Assembly (NCBI GenBank): GCA_044892505.1
Contig: CM097882.1
Span: 298,158,001 to 298,222,000, forward strand
Length of the DNA stretch: 64,000 bases
DNA from: Schmidtea nova
Lineage: Eukaryota
Direction: 5' to 3'
Shown: positions 3,478 to 62,540 of the stretch, one piece after another
Layout of the letters: each line of letters opens with the position of its first letter
How positions within the stretch are numbered: position 1 is the first letter of the stretch
Notes under the pieces: model-generated
The model's database searches: none
The model's input: the letters and a program-made list of their open reading frames with translations, nothing else
What the model was told of the DNA's origin: nothing
Program-made: the position numbers and the translations under genes

Positions 3478-3712
3478 TAATTTAATATAAGCCAACATGT
3501 AATCCAAAAGGAAATTACAAGTATTTTCTCTTACATCCTTCCAAATTGGTGGTAGTTGAGTTGTTTGTTGAATCACTTTTAAACTTGTTGCTATATCTAT
3601 AATATCCTGTTTGAATTAATAATGGCCCCCTAAATTCAGAAAAAGTCAGCAGTAAAGATGTTAATGTTTTCAACGCATTAGTTAACAAGTCACTAACAAA
3701 TTGACAAGAATC
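3478..3712 (-). pseudogene. Polinton pPolB relic, inverted copy of 5610-5843
   Basis: Reverse complement matches 5610-5843 base for base by eye. Translates as QQTTQLPPIWKDV...LLDYMLAYIKL, cf. LALPPIWKDV...LFDYMMVYLKLD in the polB at 57063-59273. Confidence 0.8.
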
Positions 3713-5045: not shown

Positions 5046-5990
5046 TTACCTAAAAATAAAAATCTTCAGTTTAAGAACTTGGCGAAAACTGTGACTCCGC
5101 CTTTCGAAATTTATGCTGACTTTGAGGGGCCAAAAGACACCAAATATTTTCAAAAACAATTGCCCGTCTCAGCTAGTATATTATGTATTATTAACTTTAT
5201 CGTGGCTAATTTATTAAAAAGTTTCCTACAGCTTAGTTGCATTGACGAATTTCTTTTTGATATTTTTCTAATAAGTCAACAAAGAGTTATCCCTATTTTT
5301 ACTAAAAGTTTCAGAAGAAAATGATTTTAAATAGAGATGATTAATTATTATTGTTTTCTTCAACTAAGGGATTACGAAAACTTTCTCGGTAAATCTGTAA
5401 GGCAGCTTGTCATAAATGCAATGATTCCAGACAAATTAAACACACTTTGCCTGTAGTTTTGCATAATTTGAGAGTATATTATCTCCATACTATTCTCATA
5501 TTTAGGTTTTTGAAGTAAAACTCTTGGAATATAGGCTTCATTTCTGTAACCTGCAAAATATTTATTAATTTATTTACAAGATTCGATGGATTTATAGTAA
5601 ATTGTACAGATTCTTGTCAATTTGTTAGTGACTTGTTAACTAATGCGTTGAAAACATTAACATCTTTACTGCTGACTTTTTCTGAATTTAGGGGGCCATT
5701 ATTAATTCAAACAGGATATTATAGATATAGCAACAAGTTTAAAAGTGATTCAACAAACAACTCAACTACCACCAATTTGGAAGGATGTAAGAGAAAATAC
5801 TTGTAATTTCCTTTTGGATTACATGTTGGCTTATATTAAATTAGATGAGTTTTTATTTTCTGAATTTTTGCAGCAGTTGAAAATTTAAACATTTTAGGTA
5901 TTCACAGTATATCATGGAATTTAGCATTAATGACATTATATAGGCCAATTAAATTTATCCAAGACATGAAAATTTATAATTTATTTGAGA
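5046..5990 (+). pseudogene. Degraded Polinton pPolB fragment (third lineage in the window)
   Basis: LPKNKNLQFKNLAKTVTPPFEIYADFE, KYFQKQLPVSA, DSCQFVS, LPPIWKDV and QDMKIYNLFE align collinearly with the Polinton A polymerase. Many stops and frameshifts. Confidence 0.85.
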
Positions 5991-30100: not shown

Positions 30101-31197
30101 CTATGCAATTACAAGCTATAATGTTGTATTTTATACAATGACATCTGAAAATCTTTGGAACCCACAGTAAATAATATTGAGGCTTTATATGTATATCTTA
30201 CCATAGCTGAGTCTCCACGTGTTTCGGGGCCTTTCAGTAAACACCTGTTCTCACGTATTCTTAGTAGAATTGACTCCATTGTCCTAAAGATGCTGATGAA
30301 TCTCAATGTGAGATATTTTCTTTTGTTATGTCAAGTAGTCAGAAAGACAATTGCAAAGAGAATGAATTGCAAAAATGGGATTTTGAACAATTAGACTATA
30401 AATATCTTATAAACTAGGTCCTATTTCGACGAGACATCGCTATCGAAAGAACTTAGCTATACTGGGAATTAAACGCCTTATTAGTACAGTGTAAACAGCT
30501 GGAGACCTTTAAGTCTCGGGTGGGGGTTGTAGAGTCAATTAATATTTACTAGGGTTTTTGGTGGCAAGTTTTTTCCACAAATTATTTTTGTACTCAAATG
30601 AAACAAATGGCTAACAACATTCACATGAATTGTGCCAGGATTATAATACCATTGTAAGGGCTTTGTGGAATTGTACTCTTGCTCTGATAAATTTCAAAAA
30701 GTCTGATAGCTGGCGATTGCCTGTATATAAAAGCTTTAAGATACCACATGATTTTTAGTTGTATCAATACTTGTAACATTAATCGAGCTATGCTGTCAAA
30801 TTTTTATGGCAAAATGATCTCATGTCGGTTTAACAGTTTGATATGCTAGATACCATAGTATATACAATAAAATCATCCATTCGTCTTTCATGAAATCTTT
30901 CCAATTTAAGCTAATTATAATTTTTACACGAGCATTAATAAATTAGACAGAGGAAATAAAAACTGCTATATAAAACCACATTAATCTCATTTTATTTGAG
31001 TCCCCTAAGAGACTAAAACAATTTTTTCATTAACAGAAAATGTTTTGTAAAAGTTTTGCCTTATACATTACAATTACAAATAAGCTTAAAGTATTTTGTA
31101 ATTGTGATTAGGTAATATAATGTATATAATGCTGTGAACACTCAGTGATAATGGAGAAATTTCGCAATAAGAAAAATCTTTGCTGTATTGTAATATT

Positions 31198-31235
<38 letters not shown>

Positions 31236-37094: not shown

Positions 37095-37235
37095 GTAAAT
37101 TTAATTTAATTTTTTAAAATAATAGCTATCAACGTGTCGTACTAACTAGGATTTTGTATTTTTGATTTCTAGGGAGATGTATAATTTATAATTTATAATA
37201 TTCTATAAATGTAACAAAACCCGTCATGATATTCC

Positions 37236-39213
37236 AGTAGGGGGATATGAGGAGTCTGGATCCGTATGAGTTATCGCGCGTTTTTTGGCGACATTTTTAA
37301 AGTGTGTTTTGTTTAAATGTTTGGAATTTTTTATTATTATTTTTATTATTATTTTTATTTTATTATTATTTTATTTATTTTTATTTTTTATTTAATTAAT
37401 TTTTTTTTAATTAGTTATTTATTTTTTAAATATTATTAATTTACTTTTGTTAATATAATTTATTATTGTTATTATAAATTTTGAAACACTTCAATGATAA
37501 ACGTTCAATGAAGGCACTACTCAAAATATTTTAAGAATATATCACATGGTGAAATACGATAAATATTAAACTAATTATTTATTATTATTATTATTATTAA
37601 TATTACTATTATTTCTATGACGTAACCATAGTTTCTAAAAATTATTACCCAAATTATAAAAACAGACTGAAACTAATCTGTACAATATATAACTAAATAA
37701 TTAAAAAACAAAGTTCTTCAATAAATTTTATTTAAACAAAACTTTCATCTTGGAGATATCCAGGTGGATCTTGGAATTGTTGATCTGGATTGATTCTTGG
37801 ATCGGTATGTTGAAATATAAACAAGTCACCTTCCATATAATGGCCATATGCCAAGCTTTTATTTTTCGCCACCCATTTCCTTTTATCATCTGCGTTTGTC
37901 AGTGCAGTCTTTTCATGTTTAATAGTAAAAAGTTGGTGATTTTTACTTGTGATTCTCGTTTGGGGAACAGAAAATATTTGGTTATTATTAAAACAGTCCA
38001 GGTACGACTGATGCTTTATGTCAGTACCCGCTAATGTTGCCCCCTTAGCTTTATTAGTTTCCTCGTCACCTAAAAGACTATAACATTTAGGTCTAAGAAA
38101 CACCCACTCCTCGTATTTAAGCCCTTTATTCTCGTCTTTGAACTTGCCAATGACAGAATCAAGAGAAAGAAAAAGTTTGAGAAGTCTCCAATGAAGAACA
38201 TAGTTCTTCTTGGGATAATGCGTAAGCATCAACTTCTTAACCTTTGAGCCAGGTGGACACATCTTTTCAGCGGCAACTGGCAAATCATCCAGCTTGTCGT
38301 GAATCGAATCAGGAATTTCTAAATCGACTTCTAATGTAAATCCAAATGTTAATACTTCTAAATTAGCAGATTCACAGTAATAAATTATTTTATTTAATTT
38401 TTCCCTATCAGTTACCCATTTAAATTCTTTATAAGGTAGTTTTTGGCTTAAAGCCCACCCATATAAATTATTTATATCTATATAAAGAAGCTCAGTGTCG
38501 TCGGAGGATACTACATGGTGTTTGTTAACAAATGTTAACCCACCACGGATCCCCCCTTCGAAAAAATAATTTTTCTCCATATCTTGAAGCAACTCGATAG
38601 GAGATTTCAAAGTCATCAAAGCTGAATTCCATGACATGCCTGGAATTCCCAAGAAATTAAGAGGCTCAAGTCGGTTATGTGCAATGGATTTTGCCCTAAA
38701 TTGCTGAAAAAAGTCGGCAAGTAAGAAAACATCCAATTTCAGATATAGCATCATATAATCAAACAATGTTTCACAATTAAATTCATCCCATATCTGTTGA
38801 GCTTTTTCATACTCGTCGATTTTAACTCCTTCCCAAATCGGTGGCAACTCGTATGTATTTTGTAAAACCTCTAAAGAAGTTGCAAAATTATATGGGAATA
38901 TGCCTTTGGAAGTAACTATAGTACCTATAAATTCGGATGAAGTAAGAGGAAAATCTGTTAAAGTCTTTACAGCATCGTTTAAGCTACAGCTTACAAATTG
39001 GCAAGAATCGATAAATTTAATAGTTAAACTATCGACTCTTGCATATAAAGTCAAAATCTTTTCACTTGTAGTAGGAATACAACTTATTTCCCATTTATCG
39101 AATTTATTTAAACCATACTTGAGGATATGATGCAAATCATATCCGCGTAAATTATGAAATATTACTAGAATGACCAATCTTATTTGCCGAGAAAAATTGC
39201 ATTTAGAGCAAGC
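37236..39213 (-). mobile_element. Polinton B remnant: one terminus plus the 3' part of pPolB
   Basis: Terminus begins AGTAGGGGG at 37236 and shares its sequence with 17813-18275. The polB ORF ends 180-190 bp inside the shared terminal segment. Confidence 0.8.
37732..39213 (-). pseudogene. polB: Protein-primed DNA polymerase B fragment with in-frame internal deletion
   Basis: ACSKC...IFHNLRGYD, IDSCQF, KGIFPY, YLKLDVFLLAD, GIRGG, YIDINNLYGWA and FLRPKCY. Lacks motif B (KxxxNSxYG) and motif C (DTDS); 5' truncated. Confidence 0.92.
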
Positions 39214-39251
39214 TGTAGCTTAAACGATGCTGTAAAGACTTTAACAGATTT

Positions 39252-44575: not shown

Positions 44576-46075
44576 AAACCCCAGTGTGGCAAAGGCTTTC
44601 ACTTATCAGACATACAATAAAGTTGTTACACTTTAACTGAACAAAATCTCAAAATCTCAATTATAGACTTGCAAATAATAACGAAACTATAAACTAATAT
44701 TCACTTAACAAGCATGTTTTTATTGGTCCAAAAGTCTTGTAATTAAATTACAAACTGATTGGACGTCATAAACCACAGACAAAAAGATGGGAAGAAGAAT
44801 TCTCAAAATAATTTTTTTCCACAGAAAAATTGGCACAAATGTGTCCTGACAATATTTTCAAAAATTATTTCAATAATTTCAATTTGTCTGAAAATTTAAT
44901 TTTTCTAAACAATACAATATGCGAGTAGGTAGATGTGTGGAGTCAAACACAAAGAAATGAGTCATAATGCGTGGGCGGAAAATTTTAAACAAAGAACTTT
45001 TTTTTTGGAACCCCTCCCCCGGGGGGGGGGGGGGTCAATTTTTTTTTTTTTTTTTCGCGCCAAAAATTTTTGAAATTTTTTTTTGAAATTTTTTTTTTTC
45101 GCGCCAAATTTAAATTTGAAAATTTTTTAACACAAATTTTTTTAACACAAATTTTTTCAACACAAATTTTTTTTTTAACATAAATTTTTTTTTTTAACAC
45201 AAAATTTTTTAACACAAAATTTTTTAACACAAAATTTTTTAACACAAATTTTTTAACACAAATTTTTTCAACACAAAATTTTTCAACACAAAATTTTTCA
45301 ACACAAATTTTTTCAACACAAAATTTTTTAACACAAATTTTTTTTTTTTAACACAAATTTTTTTTTTTTTCAAAATTTTTTTTTTAACAAAGAACTTTTT
45401 AAACAAAGAACTTTTAAATGCGTGGGCGTAAAAATTTTTAAACAAAGAACTTTTTTCGAGACCCCCCATGGGGGGGCTAAATTTTTTTTTTTTTTTTTTC
45501 AAAAAATATTTTTTCGCGCCAAAAATTTTTTAAATTTTAAAAATTTTTTTTTTTCACACCAAATTTATTTTAGTAAATTTTTTTTTTTTGACACAAAGTA
45601 TTTCAACAGAAATAAGAGTCATCAAAAAGTTTGCAACACGCGTGCAACTTAAACAAAGACAATGCAATACACGTGCAACATGAACAAAGACATTCAAAAT
45701 ACAAAATAAAATTTATTTATAAATATATCGTTGTGTACGTGTACAAAATTTAGTTTCAAAATTATTTACATCTGAATTATTACTCGGAATATTATTCATA
45801 GGAATATTATTCATTGTAATATTATTCATCGGAATACTAGTATTTTTCGGAATATTATTCTTTGGAATATTTGACATCTTCTCCAACCGTATGGATGCCG
45901 ATAATATCATTATAATTATTAATATAAATAAACTTATATAATGTAATACAATGGCTGTTTTTTCATTTTCAACTGTTTGATTTTGGTATCTGACTTCATA
46001 TTCTTTTTTAACAAAAGTTTGATTGATACATTTTAATCGTTCAACTATTTTCATCATTATTTTGGCAATCATTTT
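44576..46075 (+). repeat. Left TIR of Polinton A (~1.5 kb)
   Basis: Reverse complement of 61186-62540. Contains ~13-bp AACACAAATTTTT tandem units, C-run/G-run palindromes and the 3' half of the membrane-protein gene. Confidence 0.95.
45053..45523. promoter_or_regulatory. Three TTTCGCGCCAAA E2F-consensus sites in the left TIR
   Basis: Exact 12-mers at 45053-45064, 45097-45108 and 45512-45523; mirrored at 61739-61750, 62014-62025 and 62058-62069. Confidence 0.55.
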
Positions 46076-46294
46076 TTCAATGTCATTATTAATCACATTA
46101 TTTTTGGAAGGACATTGATTACATTGTAATTTTATTTGACTGCATTCAATGTTTGAGTAAAGACATATATCATTATAACTCGCACAAGTACTATCCTGTT
46201 TTCGAAACGGATGGGATGATTGACAATCTTCCAAAGCTTGTTCTCCTTCAGTATTGTGAACACATAATAATAAAATAACTATATTTAATTTCAT
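45713..46294 (-). CDS. Predicted type I membrane protein: signal peptide, Cys-rich ectodomain, TM helix, repetitive tail
   Basis: MKLNIVILLLCVHNTEG, six Cys in 38 residues, TM AIVLHYISLFILIIIMILSASI and IP(K/M/S)NN repeats. Confidence 0.7.
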   Translation of the reverse strand: MKLNIVILLLCVHNTEGEQALEDCQSSHPFRKQDSTCASYNDICLYSNIECSQIKLQCNQCPSKNNVINNDIEKMIAKIMMKIVERLKCINQTFVKKEYEVRYQNQTVENEKTAIVLHYISLFILIIIMILSASIRLEKMSNIPKNNIPKNTSIPMNNITMNNIPMNNIPSNNSDVNNFETKFCTRTQRYIYK

Positions 46295-46360
46295 TTTAAA
46301 AACAAAAACTAATATCAAAACTAAAATTGTTCATACTAAAAAATATTTATTAAAAAACAA

Positions 46361-46777
46361 TTATGCGTATCTTGCATTGTCAACTCTCCAAATTGGAGTA
46401 ACAACATCTTTTTTATCAATCTTGTACCCTTGAATAATAACGGTAACGAACCAATGTTCTTGATCCATGAAATCAATTGTTTGAAACGCATCATGGAACC
46501 GAGTTTTTCTGTTATTGATGTACATGGTTTCTTTACAAGATAAATTAACATTCATCTTTGAAAACAATCGATTTAATGTTATTATATTTTCTTTAGCAAT
46601 AATTATAGCAAGACTGTCATATAAAGATTTTGTTAACTTTACCGGATAAGATAATCGATACGGTATTTCATTAACCAAAAAATAAATTCGGCTGTCGTAG
46701 TATATCTGGACTGGTTTTACCTCAGTCTGATATATTTTTTCTTCGCTTATATCTAAATTTTGTTTTCTTGAATTCAT
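46361..46777 (-). CDS. 138-aa Polinton accessory protein with an LSCKE (LxCxE) motif
   Basis: Intact ATG-to-stop ORF, tightly packed with its neighbours; family unknown. Confidence 0.7.
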   Translation of the reverse strand: MNSRKQNLDISEEKIYQTEVKPVQIYYDSRIYFLVNEIPYRLSYPVKLTKSLYDSLAIIIAKENIITLNRLFSKMNVNLSCKETMYINNRKTRFHDAFQTIDFMDQEHWFVTVIIQGYKIDKKDVVTPIWRVDNARYA

Positions 46778-47031
46778 TTTATAAATTGTGACAATATTTT
46801 ATAAAATGTCTTTGTATTTATACTAATGACTGGATGTCTTTGTCCAATCATATTCATGCATTTATCTTGCACACACTATGCATCTGTATTGCAATGTCTT
46901 TGTTGTATGCGTGCATGTTTAATTAATTTGTATATGTTCAATAATGAGCTTTTACAGATAAAAACAATCACAGAATATGTTCTGCTACTAGGGTTCTGTT
47001 ACCAGGGTTCTGCTCGGAATGTTCTGATACA

Positions 47032-47066
<35 letters not shown>

Positions 47067-47326
47067 GTTTTTGTATTTATTTCATAATTATTATTAATAT
47101 TATTATTCATCAAAAATAAAAACACATTCTTACTTATTCTCATTTAATCAAAACGTTCATAACTAAAATACTTTTTTAAAACCCAAAACACTTTCTTATT
47201 TAATAAAAAGTTGATTAAAATAATTAAAACATTAACATAAAAAGCTATTACAAATAAAGAATTCAAAACTCAAAAATAATTTCAAAAACTTTTATTAAAA
47301 AAAAAAATATATAATAATAATAACAA

Positions 47327-47952
47327 TTACATATCAGATGGTTCACCGCCAAGAGATTGGCAACCATCATTATCATCTACACAATCATCAACCTTTCGGT
47401 GGCACTCATCACAATCAGGTGATTGAGGCGATTCCATAGAAGATTGTTCATCTATAGTTGATGCTTCAATCTCAATTGAATCATCAATTGGTTCGGGAGT
47501 TGAGTTGAGCCATCTCTCTTGTTCCATCTCCTCCTCGATAATCTCCTTCAATTCTTTTGTTTCGAATTGATTGAGGGTATTTCGGAGAACCCATACTTGT
47601 AATTTGCGAATCCTATCCACACAGTGCCCGCATTGATAGGCGCACAATATATGTTCGGCCATAAAAGGCAAATCATTGTTGAGATTTTCGAGGTGTTCCT
47701 TTAGAATCTTATTAACATCTAGTCCCGTCAAAACGTGAATTTTGTATGGGAACAGCTCCGGTGCTGTATAGGTCAGCGTCTGCATCAGATTGGGAAACAT
47801 CTCAGCCAGTTTGGTGTAGATGACGGACATGCGTTTTTCTAAAAATAAAATATATTAAATTTGAAAATATAATAATTTTATTATTTACCATTTTTTAAAT
47901 TCTTTATTTTTTGCGACATAATTGTAGATATAAACTTTGTCAGTTTGTTCAT
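47327..47952 (-). CDS. Two-exon 191-aa Polinton accessory protein with acidic C-terminus
   Basis: Exon 47952-47889 (MNKLTKFISTIMSQKIKNLKN), 50-nt GTAAAT...TTTAG intron 47888-47839, then exon 47838-47327 in frame (E-KRMSVIY...). Confidence 0.7.
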
Positions 47953-48057
47953 AGTTTATATACGAAACAAACACACATGATTTAGAAAACGATACATAAT
48001 GAACCAATCAGAGTGAAGCATGCACAACATGTCTTTATTCTCGAAATACACACAGAG

Positions 48058-48070
48058 CCAATCAGAATCG
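48058..48070 (-). promoter_or_regulatory. CCAAT-box motif CGATTCTGATTGG upstream of the 47952 gene (second CCAATCAG at 48004)
   Basis: Identical 13-mer in the same relative orientation upstream of the pol leader at 54640-54652. Confidence 0.5.
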
Positions 48071-48097
48071 TGCATTTCTAATGCATCGATATTGCAT

Positions 48098-48565
48098 TCA
48101 TGAGTCACATGTTAGTATGAAATCAACAAAGGCTTTATCTTCTATAACTGATTTTATATCGTTAATAATATCATCAACCATAGTTGAATAATCTTTGTTT
48201 TTTAATCCTAATATGACTAATTTCCCACTTGCAAATATATTTACACACATGGGATTATATTTGGTATATCTCAAAGCTGGAAATAATTCTGGCTCGTAAA
48301 CACACGGTATTAATTTCGATAATTCATTCAAATTACAAATAAATCATAAATCCGCAGTTACAGTTATCGATTGTATTGTTAAATCGTAAAACTCAACTTG
48401 TTCGTCACTAATGAATTCCTTGCATCCCATTATTCTATATCTTCCTGTTTTAAAGTATATTTTAGGGTATTTCCCACTTCGATCTACAATTTGCTGGGGT
48501 TTTCCATTTGGAAATTTCATGTGTGATACATCTGTCTTACCCTTGTAATTAATGTTTCTAATCAT
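48098..48565 (-). CDS. TATA-binding-protein-like gene with one in-frame TGA (48346-48344)
   Basis: The two listed ORFs are the same frame. IQSITVTADL*FICNLNELS...YEPELFPALRY...VNIFASGKLVILGLK matches TBP repeat 2 (YEPELFPGLIY...LIFVSGKVVLTGAK). IYFKTGRYRIMGCK corresponds to repeat 1. Confidence 0.85.
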
Positions 48566-48658
48566 TACTGAAAATATTTTTAAATGAAATAATTACTTTG
48601 AGAACCAGTATTTAAAACAAATATAAACAATAATATTAATTAAATATAATTTTTAAAT

Positions 48659-49282
48659 ATGGAATTAAGAAATGATGCAGTATTTCAAATTGTTGGTCCG
48701 AGCGGGAGTGGAAAAACTTTATTTGTTTGTAAATTATTGCAATCGAAATTATTCAAGTCAAAATTTAATAATATTTATTGGCATAGGGGTGCTGACGACG
48801 AAAGTGGAATGACACAAGATCAGTTTTGTAAAGTAAAAATGACAATCATTAAAGGTTTCGATAAAAACTGGTCATCTAGATTAAAACATGGTGATGTGAT
48901 TATCATTGACGACTTGTATCAAGAAGCAAATAAAGAAAAGGATTTCAATAATTTATTTACGAAAATCAGTAGACATAAAGGTGTTACTGTTATTTTTATA
49001 ACTCAGAATTTATTTCATCAGGGCGGTAGTCATCGAACTCGTAATTTAAATGTTCAATATCTTGTTGTTTTTAAAAATCCTAGAGATGCAACAGTTATTG
49101 ATTTTCTGGCAAGACAAGCTTATCTTTCTAATCGTAACTTTTTGATTGAAGCCTTTCAAGATGCTACAAAATCTCCTCATGGATATATTTTCCTGGATTT
49201 TACTCAACAACGCAGTGATGATGTACGCGTTAGAACTGATATTTTTTACCCTGAAGGAGCCATGGTTTATAAACAAAGTTAA
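48659..49282 (+). CDS. A32/FtsK-HerA-like genome packaging ATPase
   Basis: Walker A GPSGSGKT, Walker B VIIIDD, SRH, ITQNLF and FKNPRD; intact 207 aa. Confidence 0.95.
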   Translation: MELRNDAVFQIVGPSGSGKTLFVCKLLQSKLFKSKFNNIYWHRGADDESGMTQDQFCKVKMTIIKGFDKNWSSRLKHGDVIIIDDLYQEANKEKDFNNLFTKISRHKGVTVIFITQNLFHQGGSHRTRNLNVQYLVVFKNPRDATVIDFLARQAYLSNRNFLIEAFQDATKSPHGYIFLDFTQQRSDDVRVRTDIFYPEGAMVYKQS

Positions 49283-49302
49283 TTTAGTTTTCAATCGTAA
49301 TC

Positions 49303-49821
49303 ATGTTAATGAAATCTCGAGTAAAGTTTGAGCCATTGATAAAGGCTAGAACAAAGAAAGCGGGAAAGAAAACAAAGAAACTATTTACAAAGAAATCTAT
49401 AAAGAAATCAAGAAAGAAATCCAAGAAAATACTTATGGATAATATTCCCAAAAATAATCAAATTAATTTGAAATCTAATGCTAAACAAGCACATCATCGG
49501 AGTTTACCGTTTTTTAATGCATTACTTAAAGCCCCTTCCGTTAGAAGAATGGGTATTCTTCAATCGTTTCCTAGTTACGTCATCGATGATTTACTCGCTA
49601 TTTTAATTAAAGTCGTGCGAGGTAAAATGAATCTAACTCCATCTAATCGCCGTGTTTTGAACAGGCATAAAAAACCATTGTTGTCGCTAGTAAACTCAAA
49701 AAATAAAAAACTTATGCGTAAAGTAATATATAAACAACAAGGTGGTTTTATCGCAGCATTGTTACCATTAGCATTATCTTTATTGGGAGGTGCTGGTTTA
49801 TTGGGAAAAAGAAAGTCATAA
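49303..49821 (+). CDS. Basic putative virion core protein ending in QQGG plus a hydrophobic helix
   Basis: Lys-rich N-terminus, LNRHKKPL, and QQGGFIAALLPLALSLLGG; lies between the ATPase and integrase genes. Confidence 0.75.
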   Translation: MLMKSRVKFEPLIKARTKKAGKKTKKLFTKKSIKKSRKKSKKILMDNIPKNNQINLKSNAKQAHHRSLPFFNALLKAPSVRRMGILQSFPSYVIDDLLAILIKVVRGKMNLTPSNRRVLNRHKKPLLSLVNSKNKKLMRKVIYKQQGGFIAALLPLALSLLGGAGLLGKRKS

Positions 49822-49824
49822 ACA

Positions 49825-50046
49825 ATGGGTCAATCATTACCTAATTTAAATTTAAATTGTAAATCTTCTTGTTGTAATGGAGAAGATCTGGACGAACCCA
49901 AAAGACGACGCCGGTTTCGGTGGAGTCGAAAAGCTAAGGAAAAAAGCACAGAAGTCGAAACAACAGACACAAAGTTGGTTATCGGGGCAACTTGCATACA
50001 GTCTAAACAAACCGATGTTGAAACGGTTTCCAACTCGAGCATATAA
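49825..50046 (+). CDS. Candidate overprinted ORF (MGQSL...CKSSCC...PKRRRR) overlapping the integrase 5' end
   Basis: First ATG after the upstream stop, ACAATGG context, 73 open codons, offset from the integrase frame. Confidence 0.4.
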   Translation: MGQSLPNLNLNCKSSCCNGEDLDEPKRRRRFRWSRKAKEKSTEVETTDTKLVIGATCIQSKQTDVETVSNSSI

Positions 50047-50923
50047 AACATATAGAATCAATGATTTGTGGCAAATGGATTTGATGGAAATGATTCCGTA
50101 TTCCAAAATTAACAAGGGGTACAAGTATATTTTAACATGTATTGATGTTTACAGTAGATTTGCTCGAGCAATTGGAGTCAAATCTAAATCTGCTAATGAC
50201 ATGGCAATCGCTATCAAGACTATGATGAAAAAGGATCGGCCAACTAATTTACAAACTGATTTGGGTAAATTTAAATTTAAATTTATACATATTTAATATT
50301 TTTTAGGAAAGGAATTTTACAACAGTAAAGTCAAGGAAGTTATCAAGGGAATAAATCATTATTCGGTATTCTCACAATTCAAAGCCGCTCATGTCGAGAG
50401 ATTTAATCGAACTTTGCGTGATCGATTGAAAAAATACTTTGTTTTTAAAGGCAATAAAACCTGGATTAATGTCTTACCTCAATTGATTCATAGTTATAAT
50501 CATAGTGCTCATCGGGGTATAAATGGCAGGAAACCGGCAGAAGTAGTTGATACTGAAAATATTGTGAGTGAAGTGAAAGTAAAGAAACCAAAATATAAAG
50601 TTGATGATCATGTTCGAATTAGCAAGATTAGTACATCGCCATTCGTTAAAAATTTTGATAATAATTGGAGTGATGAGGTATATCAAATATCGAAAGTCAA
50701 CACAGTGCAGAATCCTGTCATGTATACTATTCGTGACTCTGATAACAATATAATCAGCGGCAAATTCTACGAACAAGAATTACAAGTTATTCCTAAACCT
50801 ACGATATTTAGAATTCAAAAGATTTTGAAGACTAAAATGGTAGGTAAGGATAAACAATACTATGTCAAATGGCATGGATATAAAGAACCATCATGGATCT
50901 CGTCAAAAAATCTAGTAAAGTGA
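49877..50923 (+). CDS. Retroviral-like (rve) integrase with C-terminal chromodomain, one 42-nt intron
   Basis: WQMDL, QTDLG|KEFYN joined across intron 50265-50306 (GTAAAT...TTTAG, contains an in-frame TAA), HVERFNRTL, and chromodomain YYVKWHGY. Confidence 0.95.
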
Positions 50924-51936
50924 ATTTTTACACTATTTTACCGAGCAATAGTTGTCCGAATATCCATCCGGATAATACCGCAAGTAAATTCATGGTGAAT
51001 TTACCTAATCCAATTTATTTAAACGGAAATTGGGAAGTTGCTCTAATGGATTTTACATTTGTTTACCAACCTTTTCCATATTATAGTTATTGTAAAATTT
51101 ATTACTATAAAAAGAAAACAATTGTTGCAAATGCGTTTTTCTCGATATATAATAATAATGGCCATCTGAATGTTCCAACTCACACCATTGATCCTGATAT
51201 CGAATTGTGGCAACGAGGTGGAAGAATATTTCTCACGTGTAATGTTGTTCCGTATACAATTACATTTAATGATCTTGAGATAGCAAAACGAATGGGAAGT
51301 AATAAACTGACAATAACATGTAATGAAGAAGAATGTGAATTCAAAGTTATGCAAAACTTGGCCAGTAATGATGAAGAAATAATTACTTTTACTATATCGT
51401 ATGATCGTGAAGAAGGACATGTATTCACATTCAAGGAAGAGTTGTATATAACGCATCTAGATGAATTACAGAAATATATTAGCGATAATTGTTCGGATAT
51501 TTTTACAGTTGTCGAATTAAATAAATTGTTCAAATTCAAACTCAAAGAAAAAATCACTAAAGTCCGATTTGATAAATACTTGGTCAATACATTGGGATTA
51601 GATAAGGATACATTTACCGATAAAAATATCATTTTTGGTGTTCGTCAACCGAAAATATCTAAACTTCATCAGCAATTATTCGTGTATACAAACATTATCG
51701 AACCCATTATTGTTGGTGATTCCTTGGTTCCTTTACTAAAATCGGTATGGATTGAAAAATACGAGCCAGATGAAATTGTTCAAATAGTAATGGATAATCC
51801 AATGTATTTATCTGTTTCAACATCCTGTATAAACAATATAGAAATAAATATCCGATATGACAGCGGAAGATTTATAAAATTTCCAAAAGATTCAAAAACT
51901 CACTTAACTCTACATTTTCGAAAAAACGATGAGTAA
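50893..51936 (+). CDS. Minor capsid protein (penton, single jelly-roll)
   Basis: FYTILPSNS...NTASKF...LPNPIYLNGNWEVAL, VYTNIIEPIIVGD..VPLLK, IEINIRYDSG and LTLHFR; intact 347 aa. Confidence 0.9.
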   Translation: MDLVKKSSKVNFYTILPSNSCPNIHPDNTASKFMVNLPNPIYLNGNWEVALMDFTFVYQPFPYYSYCKIYYYKKKTIVANAFFSIYNNNGHLNVPTHTIDPDIELWQRGGRIFLTCNVVPYTITFNDLEIAKRMGSNKLTITCNEEECEFKVMQNLASNDEEIITFTISYDREEGHVFTFKEELYITHLDELQKYISDNCSDIFTVVELNKLFKFKLKEKITKVRFDKYLVNTLGLDKDTFTDKNIIFGVRQPKISKLHQQLFVYTNIIEPIIVGDSLVPLLKSVWIEKYEPDEIVQIVMDNPMYLSVSTSCINNIEINIRYDSGRFIKFPKDSKTHLTLHFRKNDE

Positions 51937-52301
51937 TCCCGATATAGTTTCAATGTACAGTGATAGCCAAACTGGTGGCGAATTACCGTATTTTGTCGGT
52001 AAACAGTATGGATCAGGTTGGTTGAAAACTATTGGGAGATTTGCACTTCCAATTCTTAGACGACTAGGTAATATCGGTATGAATACTGCCAAGGACGTTA
52101 TCATGAAAGATAATAAAATATTACCGTCATTGAAAACCAATGCTTAATAAAGCTATACCTGCTGTAACTCAAATGCTTCCTACAATTACAAGTATGTTTA
52201 CAAAAAATAAGGAACCTGAATCTGTACCGGTAGGACCAAGACGTAAACGAAAACGTATAAACAAACGAATGAAAGGTCATGGAACTATATTTGAAGAATG
52301 A
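51929..52301 (+). CDS. Putative virion core/membrane-active protein, frameshifted near 52141
   Basis: SQTGGELPYFVGKQYGSGWLKTIGRFALPILRRLG. An adjacent frame continues LNKAIPAV...GPRRKRKRINKRMKGHGTIFEE to a TGA that overlaps the MCP ATG. Confidence 0.7.
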
Positions 52302-53518
52302 TTTGCGGTAAATCTGAATTATGTCTTTTTGATCGACCATCACCTCAAGCAGTTATTGAATATGGGGCGTTTGAAGATGTGTTTCCAATGAATTCTATTA
52401 CAGATAGTAGAAATGATGTTGAATTTTACATTAATGGTTCTCAAACCGAATATTTGGATTTGAACGATACATTATTGTCCGTTACAATCAAGGTTGTAGA
52501 TAAAGATAAAAAGGCTCTAGTCGATGCGAGTGATGTAATTCCCAATAATTACCTGTTTCATACACTTTTCAAAGATGTAATTCTCGGATTTAATAATATA
52601 AAAATCGAGGGTGGAAACAATACATATGCGCACAAGGCAATAATCGAAACTATTTTAAATTATACGAATGATGCGAAAGAAACATGTCTTACTCCAATGG
52701 GATATGGTTCAGCTGACGATCGGAAAAAATGGATCAAGGGATCTAAACTTTTCAACATGTGTTCGTCATTACAACTGGATTTTATGGATCAACCTAAATA
52801 CTTACTTCCCTGAGTTAATGTACATATTAGATTGAAGCGATCTGATTCTGCATTATCATTGAAATCGGCAGCTGGGAAACCAATAATCCAAATAGTTGAT
52901 GCAAAATTGATGGTAAGAAGAGTTCGATGTGAATCTTCAGTTTTGGCCGGTCATCAAATTGGTTTAAATAAAAAACATGCAATTTATCCATTAAAATCCA
53001 AAGAAATCGTATCGTTTGCAATCGGTAAAGGGGCATCATCATTTTACAAGGAGCAAATATTTGGAGATAGACGAATGCCTAATTTCATTCTTGTGGCTTT
53101 TCAATCCGAAAATCCATATAATGGATCTTATACCGAGTCAACATCTACATTCAAACATTTTAATGTGACTTCATTAACATTGTCGAAAAATACCGATTAT
53201 CGTGAAACATATACCCAGGATTTTGAAAATGATAATTTTAGTGCATCATATATGCAAAGTCTTGTCCGAAATCTAGGTTATTTGGATAAAAACTTGAATT
53301 GTGGTATAGGTTTAGATGAATTTAAATCTAGTTATCCATTCTTTACATTTGTTCTGGCTCCCGATTTTGATTTGAATCAAAGCCAAATCCCTCAAAATGG
53401 AAATTTACGACTCGATATAAAGTTTGCAAAAGCTATTGATGAACCTGTTCATGTAGTTATATATGGAGTTTTTGAAAATGAAGTACAAATTACTGCCAAT
53501 AGAACAATATTGGTTTGA
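52298..53518 (+). CDS. Major capsid protein (double jelly-roll, hexon-like) with in-frame TGA at 52811-52813
   Basis: CGKSELCLFDRPSPQ, YLDLNDT, PNNYLFHTLF, KYLLP*VNVHIRLKRS, FKHFNV, LAPD and GNLRLDIKF. Both listed ORFs are in the same frame. Confidence 0.92.
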
Positions 53519-53571
53519 GCAGAAATCAAACAGTATAAATGATCAAAGTTATTATTTTTATTATTATTATT

Positions 53572-53951
53572 ATGGAGTAAGATTTTTTAATTGATTAATT
53601 ATTTATTTTTTAATTAGTTCTATTCAGGTATTAAAACAAGGTAAAAAACTATTGGGAAATCAATTTATTGGAGTATTTCCTCTGGATAAAATACCTTATT
53701 TGAAAATGAATCAAGCCATCATTGTAAATACTCAGACATCTACGTTGGGCGGTGAACATTGGATTGCAGTTTATGTGAAACCAGATCGAATACATGTATT
53801 TGATCCCTTTGGATATTATTATCCGAATTTACTTGTTCGAAAACTTCAAACTATTGGTAAACCTATTGTGTATAATAGAATTCGGTATCAGCATCCTTTA
53901 ACAATCACTTGTGGTGAACATTGCCTTGCATGGTTAAAATCAATGTTATAA
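53572..53951 (+). CDS. Adenain-like cysteine protease, one 41-nt intron
   Basis: ATG GA|GTAAG...TTAG|T (intron 53577-53617) gives MDSIQVLKQGKKLLGNQFIGVFPLD. Catalytic H (GEHW), D (FDPFG), Q and C (QHPLTITCGEHC). Confidence 0.92.
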
Positions 53952-53983
53952 ACAATTTATTTTAATATATTTTATTTGAAAAA

Positions 53984-54385
53984 ATGTCTTGTTATTTTAT
54001 CGATTTTTATGGTTATAATGAAATGGGTGGAACAACAATTAAGGAATTATGTATTATGAATGTTAATAATATTTTCACACCCCAGTATTATATATACAGT
54101 GATTTATCTTTCTGGCCTGATCGTATAGAATCGTTTGAAGGACAAGATTATTTTTGCCCAAAATGTATAATGGATGATATCACAGATAAAGGAGCTATTT
54201 TCTATGTTACCGATAATGAAAAGATGTATGTTTTGAAGAAGTATTTCCCGAAATTAAGATTAATCAAATATACTTATAAAGAAGTTGAATATGTTCCTGA
54301 AAACATTTCATGTCCCTATAAAGACCATTGTATGTGTGCCTATAAAGGGTGCTTGTCTGCTGTTGTAGATTATTTAAAACAATAA
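53984..54385 (+). CDS. 133-aa accessory protein, DnaQ/DEDD-exonuclease-like N-terminus with Cys/His tail
   Basis: YFIDFYGY...IKELCI and CPYKDHCMCAYKGC; the fold assignment is an inference. Confidence 0.55.
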   Translation: MSCYFIDFYGYNEMGGTTIKELCIMNVNNIFTPQYYIYSDLSFWPDRIESFEGQDYFCPKCIMDDITDKGAIFYVTDNEKMYVLKKYFPKLRLIKYTYKEVEYVPENISCPYKDHCMCAYKGCLSAVVDYLKQ

Positions 54386-54639
54386 ATGTATAATGTGATT
54401 TTATTATTTTTTATTATTATTTTTTAAAATATTATTATTTTTATTATTATTAATATTAAATATTATTATTTTAATCATAAAGACATGACCAGTGCATGAT
54501 CAGTGCGTGATAAGCACATGATGAAACACGTCATATCATGTCTTTGTCACGATACAAAGCAATATCGTGACGTCAAACACACATAAACAAAGGTACATTA
54601 TGTGTGCAGCATGTGTGCATGTATTTGCCTATCCTATCT

Positions 54640-54652
54640 CGATTCTGATTGG
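54640..54652 (+). promoter_or_regulatory. CCAAT-box motif CGATTCTGATTGG ~100 bp upstream of the pol leader ATG
   Basis: Same 13-mer as 48058-48070, followed by a TATA-like TATATAGTATATA. Confidence 0.5.
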
Positions 54653-54752
54653 TCGGTTAATAAAATTCATCTTTATATAGTATATACTTGCATTATTTCG
54701 TCACTTTACTTACAAATTTTTTAAATCAATTTTAAATTAATATCAATCAATT

Positions 54753-57700
54753 ATGAACAATATCCGAATCGTAAAGGAAAGACATCTCGCAGGAGGTGTT
54801 AATGGTAATTTTATTATTATTATTTTTAATTTTATTATAATATATGCTTTCAGAAATGAATATTGCGCGAAATATCGCCACAGTTATGATGCGACAAGAT
54901 GACCAGTCGCCATCTAGAAATGTTGCTCCAAGAATACGAGTTGGAGAACACAATGGTATTAGATTTTTGGGTAATATTTATTTTTATTATTACTATTATT
55001 TTTATTATTATTTTACTTTAGTTAATAATGATCGCAACAACAACAACAATGCCGAAGCATCAAGGATGGGTGCATTTTCTTTAATGGGACGAACTGATTG
55101 TAATTTTATTTATTTATTTTATAAATATTATTTTACAATGAATTTTTCAGATAATATGAGAAATGTGGATATAGATGATGAGCTCCAGAATGACGTTCCG
55201 AATGTTGCCGACGTCCCGAAAGTTGTCCAGAATGATGTCCCGAGTAATGCTCTTGTTAATCCGGATGCCCCAATTTATGGGAAGACAAAATGTAGGCATT
55301 TATCTTTATTTATTTTTTAATTTAGCATATTTTATTTAACTTTTTTATTTAAATAATACTTTTTATATATTATTTTTAAATAATTTAGTAATGGTTTGTA
55401 AAAACAATTACTAAATGATTTAAAAGTATAATATTAAAAGTAATTATAATATGAAATATTCATTTACTTTTTTTTTTTTTTTGATAATTAACATGTTTGA
55501 AATATAGATTTTTGATAAAAAGATACAATTTAGAAATAGAATTTTATATTATGAAATAGTGATTTTTTTTTTGATAGATACAATTTTGAAATATAATTTT
55601 ATATGATGAAATAGTGATTTTTGAAATAGAATTTTATATGATGAAATAATGATTTTTGATAGATACCATTTTGAAATATTATTTTATATGATTAAATAGT
55701 GATTTTTTGATAGATACCATTTTGAAATAGAATTTTATATGATGAAATATTTATTTTTTGATAGATACAATTTTGAAATAGAATTTTATATGATGAAATA
55801 TTTATTTGTTGATAGATACCATTTTGAAATATTATTTTATATGATAAAATAGTGATTTTTGAAATAGAATTTTATATGATGAAATATAGATTTTTGATAG
55901 ATAACATTTTTGAAATAGAATTTTATATGATGAAATAGTGATTTTTGATAGATACCATTTTGAAATAAAAATTTATATGATGAAATATTTATTTTTTGAT
56001 AGATACAATTTAGAAATAGAATTTTATATGATTAAATATTGATTTTTTATATAATATTTGGTTTTATTATCTTATATATTTTGAATTTATTTAAATATTT
56101 ATTTAAATATTTATTTAAATTCAGGTTCAACCTACAAAAATTTTTGCAACAGTAGGTTCCATAATGATTGTCATATCATTATGGAAAAATACTACTCGTT
56201 GCCATATAATACTGTTACCCACCTCATATGCCCCACCTGTAAACTTATCGAAATTTGCCCATATATTGACTTCTTTAATAGGCACTGTAACCATCTTTCA
56301 CAGTTTCAGCCTTCTAAGAAAATTTTATTTAAACAACTTTTTCCTAATTTTATTAATCCTATAAATAATACTATAAATAATAATAATAATAATAATCTAA
56401 ATAATACTATGAATAATACAAATAATATAAATGATACAAATAATATAAATGATACAAATAATCTAAATAATACAAATAATATAAATAATACAAATAATAA
56501 TAATCAAACAAATAATATAAATAATACAAATAATACAAATAATACAAATAATATAATTAATACAAATAATAAACGAAAACATATTAAAATTCCGGATTCA
56601 GTTCCTACTAAAATTCAAATAATAGATCTCACTGATGATGAATTAATAGTCATCAGTGATGATGAAAATTTAAATAATAATGTAAATAATTTAAATAATT
56701 TAAATAATAACCAAATCGGATATGGTGCCGTCGAAATCGTCAATGACCTAAATAACAATCATATAATTGTTAAAATGGATGTAGAAAATCTTAATTTGAA
56801 AACGGTCTCAGTACCGACAATTCTTTTAGATAAATTAACTTTTGAAGTGAACAAATATAAAACTGTCATAATCCAATTCTGTTTGAAGGTGGAATTTGAG
56901 AAGGACGATGAATTACAATCGTTCGTTATCTCAAATTCTGCCAGGGTCTGAAGTGATACCTTCATTGAGGAAGGTATTGCTCTTTTAAATGAAAAAATCA
57001 TCACGATAAATGAGAAAGGTAGTAACTGGACTATCTCAAAAGTTGAATACATTAGCTTTGTCTTGACCAGATACTCTGAAATAACTCGATTAAGCGGAAG
57101 TCAGTTTATCGAAACTCCGAAATCTTTAAGGAAAAAGAAATGTTTAGTAAATGTAGTAAATCAGGACAACTTTTGTTTTTTATATAGTTTCCTTTCTATA
57201 ATTAAATATGAGAGTTTAACAAATGAAACTCGTTGCATTCCTTCCTCTTATAATCTTTCACAATTGAATTATGACCCCAATGATATGCCTATGAGACTTG
57301 GTAATATAAGTAAATTTGAGAGACAAAACCCAGGTTATAGCGTCAATGTTTTGTCATATGATGAAAATCCCTTATTAGATCTTATTGATGAAAATGAGGA
57401 TATTGTCCTTAAACATCCTTTTATTGACTTAATTTACAAGTCAAAAGTTGTAGGTGGTACCCCAATAAATCTGTTATTGCTTCAAAACAGAAAAACTTTT
57501 CATTATATAGGCATCTTTGATTTGAATCGTTTTTTGAATTGCCGTAATAGCGCTATAACCCCTGTAAGGATTTGTAGTAAATGGTGTCCGAGATGCTTAA
57601 ATGGTTTTCGAAATGATGAGGTTTTCAATAGGCATAGGGGTCTTTGTGATAAGAATCAAACTGGTACAACTTTGTACACTTTACCAAAAAATAAGATGCT

Positions 57701-60187
57701 GGAATTTACTGAATGGCGCAAAACAGTGACTCCTCCCTTTGTTATTTATGCCGACTTTGAGGCAATCTTACCTGCGGACACCAGGTATTTCCAAAAGCAT
57801 TTGCCTATTTCAGCCGGTTTGTTATTAATTAACAACTTTACTGGACAAAAATTCTATAAATCTTTTGCCGGCCTTAATTGTGTAGAGGATTTTCTAAATG
57901 AAATAGAGCTTATAAGTCGCCACATAGTAACACCGTACTATTATAAAAACGCTAATAAAACTATGATAATTAGCCATGAGCAACAAATTGAATTTAACAA
58001 CAGCACAATTTGTTATTTATGCAAAAAGCTATTATGTCGACCTGTTAGGGACCATGACCATTTCACCGGTCTTTTTCTTGGAGCAGCTTGCTCAGAATGT
58101 AATAAAAATAGGCAGATTAGACATACCCTTCCTGTCATCTTTCACAATTTAAAGGGGTATGATCTACACCATATTCTAAAATATGGTTTATCTAAATATC
58201 GTAAATGGAATATTAGCTGTATTCCATTAACCAGTGAGAAATTTCTTAGTCTTTTTGCTAGGATTGACTCTTTAACTGTCAAATTCATAGACTCATACCA
58301 ATTCGTCAGCGAGTCTTTAAATAATGCTGTCAAAACTCTTACTTCCTTACCACTCACCGAATCAGAATTTCAGGGCACTATAATTACAGCCAAGGGCATT
58401 TTTCCGTATGATGCTGCAACTTCCTTAGAAGTTTTACATTCTACTTTAGCTCTCCCACCGATCTGGAAAGATGTAAAGCCAGAAGAATATGCAATGGCGC
58501 AAAGAATATGGGTTGAAACATCATGTAATTCACTTTTTGATTACATGATGGTTTATTTAAAACTGGACGTTTTTTTACTTGCTGATTTTTTCCAGCAATT
58601 CCGTTTCAAGTCTATTAATCATAATAGACTTGAACCTCTGAATTTCCTCGGGATTCCAAGTTTATCTTGGAGTTCTGCCTTAATGACCTTAGAATCTCCA
58701 ATCGAGCTCCTCACCGATATGGAAATGTACAATTTTTTCGAGGGCGGTATCCGTGGCGGACTAACTTTTATTAACAAACACTATGTAAAAACAAGCCCGG
58801 ATACCGCATTGCTTTACATAGACATCAATAACTTGTATGGATGGGCCTTAAGCCAACCTTTACCTTGTTCTAATTTTGAATGGGTCACAGATGACCACTT
58901 ATTAAATGAAATCGTTTGTCAGTGCACATCGGTTGATCTAGATGCACTTCATTATGGCTACACCATAGAAGTGGATTTGGAGATACCGGCATCAATTCAT
59001 GACAAACTGGATGATCTTCCAGTTGCCGCTGAAAAGATGTGTGCACCGGGATCCAAGGTTGAGAAGCTGATGCTCACGCATAATCCAAAGAAGAACTATG
59101 TTCTTCATTGGCGGCTTCTGCAACTATTTGTTAAATTAGGCATCGTGATAACAAAGGTCCACAGGGCCATAAAATTTAATCAAAGCAAAATTTTTTTAAA
59201 TTATATTAATACCAACACGACGTTACGATCAGCGTCAACAACTAAATTAGATAGGGATTTTACAAATTATTGAATAACAGCCTTTACGGCAAAACCGTAG
59301 AAAATTTAAAAAAGCGTATTAATTTGCGCCTATGTAATAATCCTGAAAAATTACTTACTTATTGTTCGAAACCTACGTTTCGTAAAACTAATAAAATCGA
59401 TAATGATCTTATTTCTGTCTTGCTGCGAAAGGAGTCAGTATGTTTGGATAGACCCAGCTACATCGGTCAAACTGTACTGGATTTATCCAAACTAAGAATG
59501 TACCAGCTACAGTATGTAGAGTTACAAAAATATCGTGACGACTATAACTGTAAGATTAACATCGTCGCTGGGGATACTGACTCCTTTTTTCTTGAGGTCA
59601 AAAACTGTAGTCTTGACACTCTTTTACCGGCTATGGTTAATGATTGCTTGCTGGACACCTCCAATTATGACCCTATGGATCCTTTATACAACAGAAACCT
59701 TGACTCTGTCATTGGAAAGTTCAAAGACGAGAGTAAAGGGATGTTGTATAAAGAGTGGGTGTTTCTTAGACCGAAATGCTACAGCTTAATGGGTGATGAG
59801 GAAAGTATGAAGGCTAAGGGGATATGCATGAAGGATACTGGACTAACTCATCAGTCGTATCTCGATTGCTATTTAAATAATAAGATCTATACGGTCCCCC
59901 AGTTTAGGATAACATCTAAAAATCACCAGCTTTTTAGTGTGAAAAATAATAAGCGGGCATTAAGCTGTAGAGATGACAAGCGTAATTGGGTAGGGAAAAA
60001 TAAAAGCCTGGCATATGGCCATTATAGAGGGGGTAACAGTATTTTAGATACGGAGCAGCCTCAGCAGAATCAACAACAGCTACAACAACAACAACAACAA
60101 CAACAACAGCTACAACAACAACAACAGCTACAAGATGATGATCCGTATTTCTTTTACGAAGAGCCGGAGCATAATTATTTGCAATGA
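54753..60187 (+). CDS. polB: Protein-primed DNA polymerase B precursor with a predicted four-intron leader; one in-frame TGA and one frameshift
   Basis: Exons 54753-54804, 54854-54970, 55022-55099, 55151-55291 and 56125-60187. TGA 56949-51 is followed in frame by EKGSNW. Motifs YADFE, RDHDHFTG, IFHNLKGYD, YIDINNLYG, LNNSLYGKT, AGDTDS and LRPKCY. One T is missing at ~59256-59261 (expected DFYKLLNNSLYG). Confidence 0.93.
55490..56045. repeat. ~50-bp degenerate tandem array inside the 833-nt pol intron
   Basis: Repeated GATAGATAC(C/A)ATTTTGAAATAGAATTTTATATGATGAAAT units. Confidence 0.9.
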
Positions 60188-60199
60188 TGGCTAGATATA

Positions 60200-60600
60200 A
60201 ATCTAATCCGAAAATCAAAAAAAAAAAAAAATAACCGAAAATCAAAAAAAAAAAATTTAAGAAAATCAAAAAAAAAAAGAAGTTATTCAGAAGGATCAAG
60301 AAAGATATGAGAATGCACAATCGGCCCTCTTCAGGGCCACAATTTATGATTGAAAAACAGTTTTTTGAAATTTTAGATTTCTAGAAAACAGAAAGGAAAA
60401 CAGATTGTTAAAAATGATTATGAAAACAGAAACCGAAAATACTAGTGATTATTAAACCAGAAATAATTTGAAACAGAAACCGAAAATACTATTGATTATT
60501 AAAACCGAAAACAAAATACATAAAAGAAATATGAAAACCGAAAAGAAAAACCGAAAAGAAATATGAAAACAGATAAAGAAACAGATTGAGAATGAAATAA
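60200..60600. repeat. A-rich degenerate repeats (AAAACCGAAAA-containing units) downstream of polB
   Basis: Recurrent AAACCGAAAAT / AAACAGAAACCG units. Confidence 0.7.
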
Positions 60601-60739
60601 TGGTCCTCTTTAGGGCCTTATTTTTTGATTGTAAATAATATTGCGCAATCAATAAAAACTATGAAAATATTTTATTTCGTTTTGTTTCTTTGTGTTTAGC
60701 ATTATTTTTATAAGTTAATATTATTAGTTTTATAAGTTA

Positions 60740-60744
60740 TTATA

Positions 60745-60828
<84 letters not shown>

Positions 60829-60886
60829 AGTTACTATCACTATTATCACTAATATTATCAATATTATTATTATTATTATTATTATA

Positions 60887-60937
<51 letters not shown>

Positions 60938-61137
60938 AGTTACTATCACTATTATCACTANNNNNNNNNNNNNNNNNNNNNNNNNNNNNNNNNNNNNNNN
61001 NNNNNNNNNNNNNNNNNNNNNNNNNNNNNNNNNNNNNNNNNNNNNNNNNNNNNNNNNNNNNNNNNNNNNNNNNNNNNNNNNNNNNNNNNNNNNNNNNNNN
61101 NNNNNNNNNNNNNNNNNNNNNNNNNNNTAATATTATC

Positions 61138-61185
<48 letters not shown>
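60740..61185. repeat. (ATT)n satellite interrupted by a 167-N gap (60961-61127)
   Basis: Direct reading. Confidence 0.95.
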
Positions 61186-61187
<2 letters not shown>

Positions 61188-62540
61188 AATGATTGCCAAA
61201 ATAATGATGAAAATAGTTGAACGATTAAAATGTATCAATCAAACTTTTGTTAAAAAAGAATATGAAGTCAGATACCAAAATCAAACAGTTGAAAATGAAA
61301 AAACAGCCATTGTATTACATTATATAAGTTTATTTATATTAATAATTATAATGATATTATCGGCATCCATACGGTTGGAGAAGATGTCAAATATTCCAAA
61401 GAATAATATTCCGAAAAATACTAGTATTCCGATGAATAATATTACAATGAATAATATTCCTATGAATAATATTCCGAGTAATAATTCAGATGTAAATAAT
61501 TTTGAAACTAAATTTTGTACACGTACACAACGATATATTTATAAATAAATTTTATTTTGTATTTTCAATGTCTTTGTTCATGTTGCACGTGTATTGCATT
61601 GTCTTTGTTTAAGTTGCACGCGTGTTGCAAACTTTTTGATGACTCTTATTTCTGTTGAAATACTTTGTGTCAAAAAAAAAAAATTTACTAAAATAAATTT
61701 GGTGTGAAAAAAAAAAAATTTTAAAAATTTAAAAAATTTTTGGCGCGAAAAAATAATTTTTGAAAAAAAAAAAAAAAAAAATTAGCCCCCCCGGGGGGGG
61801 TCTCGAAAAAAGTTCTTTGTTTAAAAATTTTTACGCCCACGCATTTATAAGTTCTTTGTTTAAAAAGTTCTTTGTTTAAAAAAAAAATTTTGAAAAAAAA
61901 AAATTTGTGTTAAAAAAAAAAAATTTTGTGTTGAAAAATTTTGTGTTGAAAAAATTTGTGTTGAAAAAATTTGTGTTAAAAAATTTTTGTGTTAAAAAAT
62001 TTTCAAATTTAAATTTGGCGCGAAAAAAAAAAATTTCAAAAAAAAATTTCAAAAATTTTTGGCGCGAAAAAAAAAAAAAAAAATTGACCCCCCCCGAGGG
62101 GGGGGGTTCCGAAAAAAAAAGTTCTTTTAAAATTTTCCGCCCACGCATTATGACTCATTTCTTTGTGTTTGACTCCACACATCTACCTACTCGCATATTG
62201 TATTGTTTAGAAAAATTAAATTTTCAGACAAATTGAAATTATTGAAATAATTTTTGAAAATATTGTCAGGACACATTTGTGCCAATTTTTCTGTGGAAAA
62301 AAAATTATTTTGAGAATTCTTCTTCCCATCTTTTTGTCTGTGGTTTATGACGTCCAATCAGTTTGTAATTTAATTACAAGACTTTTGGACCAATAAAAAC
62401 ATGCTTGTTAAGTGAATATTAGTTTATAGTTTCGTTATTATTTGCAAGTCTATAATTGAGATTTTGAGATTTTGTTCAGTTAAAGTGTAACAACTTTATT
62501 GTATGTCTGATAAGTGAAAGCCTTTGCCACACTGGGGTTT
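61186..62540 (-). repeat. Right TIR of Polinton A (~1.35 kb)
   Basis: Inverted copy of 44576-46075 with fewer AACACAAATTTTT units. Includes ORF 61189-61548, a duplicate of the membrane-protein 3' half. Confidence 0.95.

Follow-up and report, generated by a model that had tools for sequence, protein, structure and literature searches.

A Polinton/Maverick element of Schmidtea nova with putative spliceosomal introns in its integrase and protease genes, probably gained one after another

The window analysed here, a stretch of 64,000 nucleotides from contig CM097882.1 of Schmidtea nova, contains one copy of a Polinton/Maverick element at 44924-62191. Its size and its long terminal inverted repeats, which start with AG, fit what is expected of these elements (15-25 kb). 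The features of the copy are as follows.

44924-62191, no strand: whole Polinton/Maverick copy, ends AGTAG...CTACT
44924-46100, plus strand: left terminal inverted repeat, inner end approximate
46361-46786, minus strand: open reading frame without a name, also in loci L058, L151 and L156
47327-47838, minus strand: accessory gene exon 2, with a Cys/His-containing N-terminal half and an acidic tail, no family
47839-47888, minus strand: accessory gene intron (putative), 50 nt, phase 1
47889-47919, minus strand: accessory gene exon 1, 10 codons plus 1 nt
48098-48565, minus strand: TBP-like gene (Pfam TBP, E 2e-9), interrupted by an in-frame stop in the window copy
48659-49282, plus strand: A32-like packaging ATPase, assigned with Pfam
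49303-49821, plus strand: basic open reading frame, kept in relatives, no family
49877-50264, plus strand: integrase exon 1, with the first two catalytic Asp
50265-50306, plus strand: integrase intron (putative), 42 nt, phase 1, with an in-frame stop inside
50307-50923, plus strand: integrase exon 2, with the catalytic Glu region and a chromodomain-like end
50884-51936, plus strand: putative minor capsid gene, assigned by position only
52298-53518, plus strand: double jelly-roll major capsid gene, with an in-frame stop at 52811-52813 in the window copy
53572-53576, plus strand: protease exon 1, start codon plus 2 nt
53577-53617, plus strand: protease intron (putative), 41 nt, phase 2
53618-53951, plus strand: protease exon 2, adenain-like (Pfam Peptidase_C5)
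54753-55291, plus strand: second accessory gene, fast evolving, with four or more exons; the exons given exclude the last one
54805-54853, plus strand: second accessory gene intron 1 (putative), 49 nt, phase 1
54971-55021, plus strand: second accessory gene intron 2 (putative), 51 nt, phase 1
55100-55150, plus strand: second accessory gene intron 3 (putative), 51 nt, phase 1
56085-60187, plus strand: protein-primed family B polymerase, in three pieces in the window copy
61161-62191, minus strand: right terminal inverted repeat, inner end approximate

The terminal inverted repeats are about 1.1-1.3 kb long. Four of the eight sibling copies for which both ends were retrieved carry a 6-bp target site duplication (one of them read by eye), and the window copy has inverted flanks in its place. 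The integrase is of the retroviral-like DDE type (Pfam rve, E 2e-8), and its chromodomain match (Pfam, E 5e-5) lies below the family cut-off. The polymerase, broken in the window copy, belongs to the protein-primed family B (DNA_pol_B_2, E 3e-23), the ATPase is A32-like (Pox_A32, E 5e-7) and the protease is adenain-like (Peptidase_C5, E 5e-6). The major capsid protein is predicted to fold as a double jelly roll (pLDDT 91, modelled from a 111-row alignment with the in-frame stop read through as X), and the Foldseek matches of this model are the capsids of iridovirus, PBCV-1, Sputnik and mavirus (best E 5e-18). The window copy is decayed, with several broken genes. The genome searched (1.25 Gb, 283 contigs) has no fewer than 40 copies with 98-100% identity in the integrase, counted from the 40 candidates scored among 1765; copies were chosen for examination by best score and not at random. 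The scan of viral contigs gave distant matches only for the integrase (23-35%), a single distant match for the protease (27%) and no match for the query P0001.

Three segments of the element begin with GT and end with AG: 50265-50306 on the plus strand (42 nt, 93% AT), 53577-53617 on the plus strand (41 nt, 90% AT) and 47839-47888 on the minus strand (50 nt, 94% AT). The original prediction, made from this DNA alone, had read them as AT-rich GT-AG introns, and its coordinates, ends and base composition are all borne out. Two AT-rich GT..AG segments of 36-60 nt are observed on the plus strand between 48659 and 53951, against a mean of 0.023 in shuffled sequence; none of 300 block shuffles reached two, with filter thresholds that were chosen after the segments were known. 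As in U2-type introns, the GT donor and AG acceptor are kept while the interior drifts, and removal of the segments from integrase and protease gives back the homologous reading frame. Comparative evidence indicates that all three segments are spliceosomal introns. A host aminopeptidase-like gene in the window has introns of 58, 55, 42 and 55 nt (n = 4, read by eye), and the peak for short planarian introns is given as 45-85 bp in the accessible part of PMC13594981. The range of 42-58 nt that had been proposed for host introns is therefore right for these four. The proposed match in size is loose; protease introns across the genome measure 37-42 nt and lie at or below that range.

Read without splicing, the integrase frame contains a stop and a spacer of 17 residues between TD and EF. 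This spacer has 3 residues in 110 of 120 homologues (9 others were unparsed and one has 12 residues), and 79 of the 120 read exactly QTDLGKEF, in agreement with the claim that intron removal restores QTDLG-KEFYN. The GT and AG are kept in 29 of 29 sibling copies, which differ from the window copy by 0.060 per site in the intron versus 0.012 and 0.007 in the two exons. Two further families of the same genome, B and C (75-81% protein identity), have an intron at the same base of the integrase. It is 43-48 nt long in family B (28 GT-AG, one GT-TG and one unparsed among 30 copies) and 44 nt long in family C (28 of 30 copies parsed), and both exons are open in 26 and 23 copies, respectively (n = 30 each). 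The intron lengths in these families are mostly frame-shifting; such a length, when fixed in families whose exons stay open, would be difficult to explain unless the segment is spliced out. The identity of the intron between families (33/44) is uninformative for such AT-rich DNA.

The integrase intron is absent from a fourth family of the same genome (70-75% identity, 33 loci), in which both halves of the integrase are open in 26 of 30 copies, and from all 31 metagenome loci that cover the site (37 loci in total). Intron presence and absence were mapped on a quick integrase tree, as the original prediction had proposed, and the intron-bearing rows form a single branch (support 99) nested among intron-free rows. 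This tree, midpoint-rooted and made without bootstrap, holds 58 rows (6 intron-bearing, 2 of the fourth family, 16 metagenome loci and 34 of the 120 database proteins), and, for its database proteins, the way in which genes were called favours intron-free forms. The simplest reading is a single, late gain of this intron in the ancestor of the three families that carry it. Sites without the intron invariably read G|G, in many cases AG|GT or GG|GT. An origin of the intron by tandem duplication of its flanks was unsupported in 8 of 8 comparisons, with 49-297 of 300 shuffles reaching the observed score.

The protease intron lies after codon 1 and two further bases. At the same site, 10 of 10 sibling copies have an intron of 39-40 nt; among 30 copies of other families, 26 have one of 37-42 nt and the remaining four are damaged. 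The fourth family, devoid of the integrase intron, has the protease intron, as do four of five metagenome loci at 55-58% identity (L054, 39 nt; L058, 37 nt; L062 and L063, 47 nt each and near-copies of each other); it is absent from the metagenome locus L074 (45% identity). Since the protease intron also occurs in the fourth family and in metagenome loci that lack the integrase intron, it appears to be the older of the two, and not peculiar to this host. The proposal of a long co-evolution with the spliceosome of this host accordingly suits the integrase intron, which has so far turned up in no more than three families, all from this genome. It does not suit the protease intron, which metagenome relatives have as well.

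Splicing would place the protease start, as had been predicted, at a Met 17 residues before the FxGVF motif. A Met is found 13-19 residues before this motif in 99 of 174 homologues, and among the others 38 have no Met there, 14 start later and 23 were unparsed. The N-termini of the closest database homologues are mostly truncated or intron-like, and in a weak protease tree these proteins group with seven intron-confirmed loci (clade support 81). P0123 falls inside this clade with a normal Met start and represents an intron loss or a cDNA. Two other gene models for the protease were rejected: an acceptor 10 nt downstream leads to an immediate stop, and the frame of an upstream ATG at 53539 meets a stop inside the intron.

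The accessory gene intron lies in phase 1 after ten codons. Nine of 10 other copies likewise have a first exon that is open and in phase 1, and they belong to two subfamilies that are alike at 55-57 of 88 residues and have introns of 49-53 nt with differing sequence. Exon 2 has an in-frame Met three codons in, so removal of this intron is not strictly needed for a product. The gene gave only a weak Pfam match to Fin (E 0.026) and no lead in the Atlas (best score 0.81). The original inventory of three introns, each of them at its place, missed the gene at 54753, which carries at least three further phase-1 introns (49, 51 and 51 nt), followed by a fourth donor at 55292. Intron 1 of this gene keeps phase 1 in each of 10 other copies, and introns 2 and 3 could be aligned in 3 of 10.

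We consider it likely that these are genuine U2-type introns, gained one after another in a Polinton lineage and routinely spliced by the host. Transcription would be nuclear, by host polymerase II, and the introns would be removed constitutively by the spliceosome; the nuclear expression that had been proposed would follow, because spliceosomal introns need the nucleus. The protease intron would have come first, in an ancestor shared with relatives that are about 40-45% diverged in protein, and the integrase intron would have followed in a single event, at a G|G site, before the three families that now carry it diverged. They may persist because the element replicates only as DNA, with no reverse-transcription step to strip them, and because splice-site mutants would lose the protein. 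That the segments are instead unspliced AT-rich insertions that disable their genes is very improbable: the window copy is indeed decayed in other genes, but the segments have become fixed throughout families made up of many near-identical copies, and their lengths shift by non-multiples of three while GT, AG and open exons are kept.

Two other explanations accept the introns as real and differ in why they are kept. They could be regulated switches, in line with the gating by tissue that the original prediction had suggested, with retention that depends on tissue or on piRNA turning off integrase and protease. The model for such a switch is the third intron of the Drosophila P element, whose splicing is restricted to the germline. 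Retention here would give a stop or a frameshift in both genes, as the unspliced protease would stop two codons past its ATG and the integrase would be truncated beyond the second Asp, and the protease intron has lasted over a long divergence. The polintons of one planarian are moreover repressed by piRNA and desilenced in differentiation in a tissue-dependent manner, according to the accessible portion of PMC8532177. However, any AT-rich intron would give a stop when retained, the intron ends are canonical and strong, and no conserved interior motif was found in the comparison of families. Integrases also exist without the intron, both in the sister family of the same genome (both halves open in 26 of 30 copies, maybe moved in trans) and at all 31 metagenome loci covering the site, and we regard a switch as unlikely. 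We give similarly little credence to retention for a general boost of expression through splicing-coupled export or stability. This would most plausibly concern the protease intron, which is old and lies directly after the start codon, and the first intron is 2-18 codons from the start in three genes; yet this element's ATPase and major capsid genes lack introns, and relatives outside the clade do without. A broader scenario appears about as doubtful, namely a widespread and so far unrecognised animal Polinton clade that has long depended on host splicing for its protease, continues to gain introns in core genes and uses retention to turn integration and capsid maturation on or off, perhaps in response to the piRNA pathway or cell type.

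Other DNA-replicating, nuclear systems also rely on the host spliceosome, among them the P element, other intron-bearing DNA transposases and the spliced genes of adenoviruses. Regulated or alternative splicing is established in those systems and would be a hypothesis for the introns described here. Vertebrate Mavericks/Polintons, in the accessible part of Barreat & Katzourakis 2021 (PMC8097293), are alike in terminal inverted repeats, 6-bp target site duplication, integrase, protein-primed polymerase B, ATPase, protease and capsid genes, but their intact elements are without introns, in contrast to two intron-bearing core genes here. Nematode Mavericks, as far as covered in the available text of Widen et al. 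(10.1101/2022.07.12.499685), also have intron-bearing accessory or cargo genes in a variable region, although their core genes are intronless and their cargo is host-derived; in the Schmidtea nova element the gains would have been in core genes, and no host family is known for the accessory genes. Full-length maverick-polinton-like elements of dinoflagellates also contain spliceosomal-type introns (PMC11957031, accessible part); these introners are mobile families inserted mostly after integration, unlike the single introns here, which appear to be inherited through the element lineage. The introns reported for Polinton-like viruses of cryptophytes (PMC12220804, accessible part) are group I and self-splicing, 309-376 bp long and located in a small gene, and not of the GT-AG, host-spliced kind. 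Intronless core genes, a descriptive rather than defining trait of Mavericks in the available parts of PMC10120064, PMC8097293 and 10.1101/2022.07.12.499685, are not what we find in this element. In the accessible text of the literature searched, no earlier account came up of spliceosomal introns inherited in the core genes of animal Polintons; the accessible parts of PMC8502044, 10.1101/2023.08.22.554363, PMC11296320 and PMC6431247 contain nothing on spliceosomal introns in core genes. What this element adds is the apparent order of gains, with an old, clade-wide protease intron, a more recent integrase intron, and families of the same genome that lack the latter and serve as controls.

A large protist survey uses intron-blind gene callers on the assumption that integrated DNA viruses are intron-free (PMC10120064, available part). 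Such calling misplaces the protease start across a clade, where close database homologues have N-termini that are cut short or continue into intron-like sequence. It would also break the integrase in two, and intact copies would be counted as dead. With these introns, expression would take place in the nucleus and rely on the host spliceosome. This differs from virophages, which use the factory of a giant virus. Families with and without the same intron, present at high copy in one genome, offer a natural test bed for the origin and persistence of introns.

Further candidate introns, AT-rich and bounded by GT-AG, are present in two metagenome relatives (L058 and L062); the one in L062 is a possible intron located at the C-terminus of the protease.

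L058:1745-1787, candidate intron
L058:12562-12610, candidate intron
L058:12860-12909, candidate intron
L062:5651-5698, candidate intron

The control for host introns was a gene of the window that combines short introns with one very long intron and that, judged by its motifs, is probably M1 aminopeptidase-like. The ARF-like small GTPase is likewise a probable name based on motifs.

27240-37100 (+), host M1 aminopeptidase-like gene
330-720 (+), ARF-like small GTPase pseudogene, decayed and intronless
37732-39219 (-), other Polinton polymerase gene fragment
3478-5843, other Polinton polymerase gene fragment

Several genes of the window copy are broken, and its two flanks are inverted duplicates of one another (about 345 bp, 95-100% identity), found in place of a target site duplication (TSD), which suggests that the copy was rearranged later.

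44576-44923 and 62192-62540, flanks
48344-48346 (-), break in the TBP-like gene
52145-52147, break in a small conserved ORF
52811-52813 (+), break in the major capsid gene
56949-56951 and about 59255-59273 (+), breaks in the polymerase gene

A fold-back element family (L149:4808 to L150:9032; L119-L148) is represented genome-wide by numerous paired matches about 7 kb apart. These elements are about 14 kb long and bounded by a 6-bp TSD; each arm carries the genes from ATPase to major capsid, the arms are 99.8% identical, and a single protease lies centrally between them. No polymerase match was found in these elements.

Candidate ATTGG and TATA-like motifs, spotted by eye, lie 5' of three accessory genes of the window copy and are consistent with host polymerase II promoters.

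47920-48010 (-), motifs
46800-46860 (-), motifs
54640-54700 (+), motifs

The window copy also carries a TATA-binding-protein-like (TBP-like) gene.

48098-48565 (-), TBP-like gene (Pfam TBP, E 2e-9)

The gene is recurrent in this Polinton clade, being also detected in L058, L059, L074, L151 and L155; among the paper titles listed, none dealt with TBP in Polintons. Possible roles of the encoded protein are a retuning of transcription in the host or binding to promoters that belong to the element itself.
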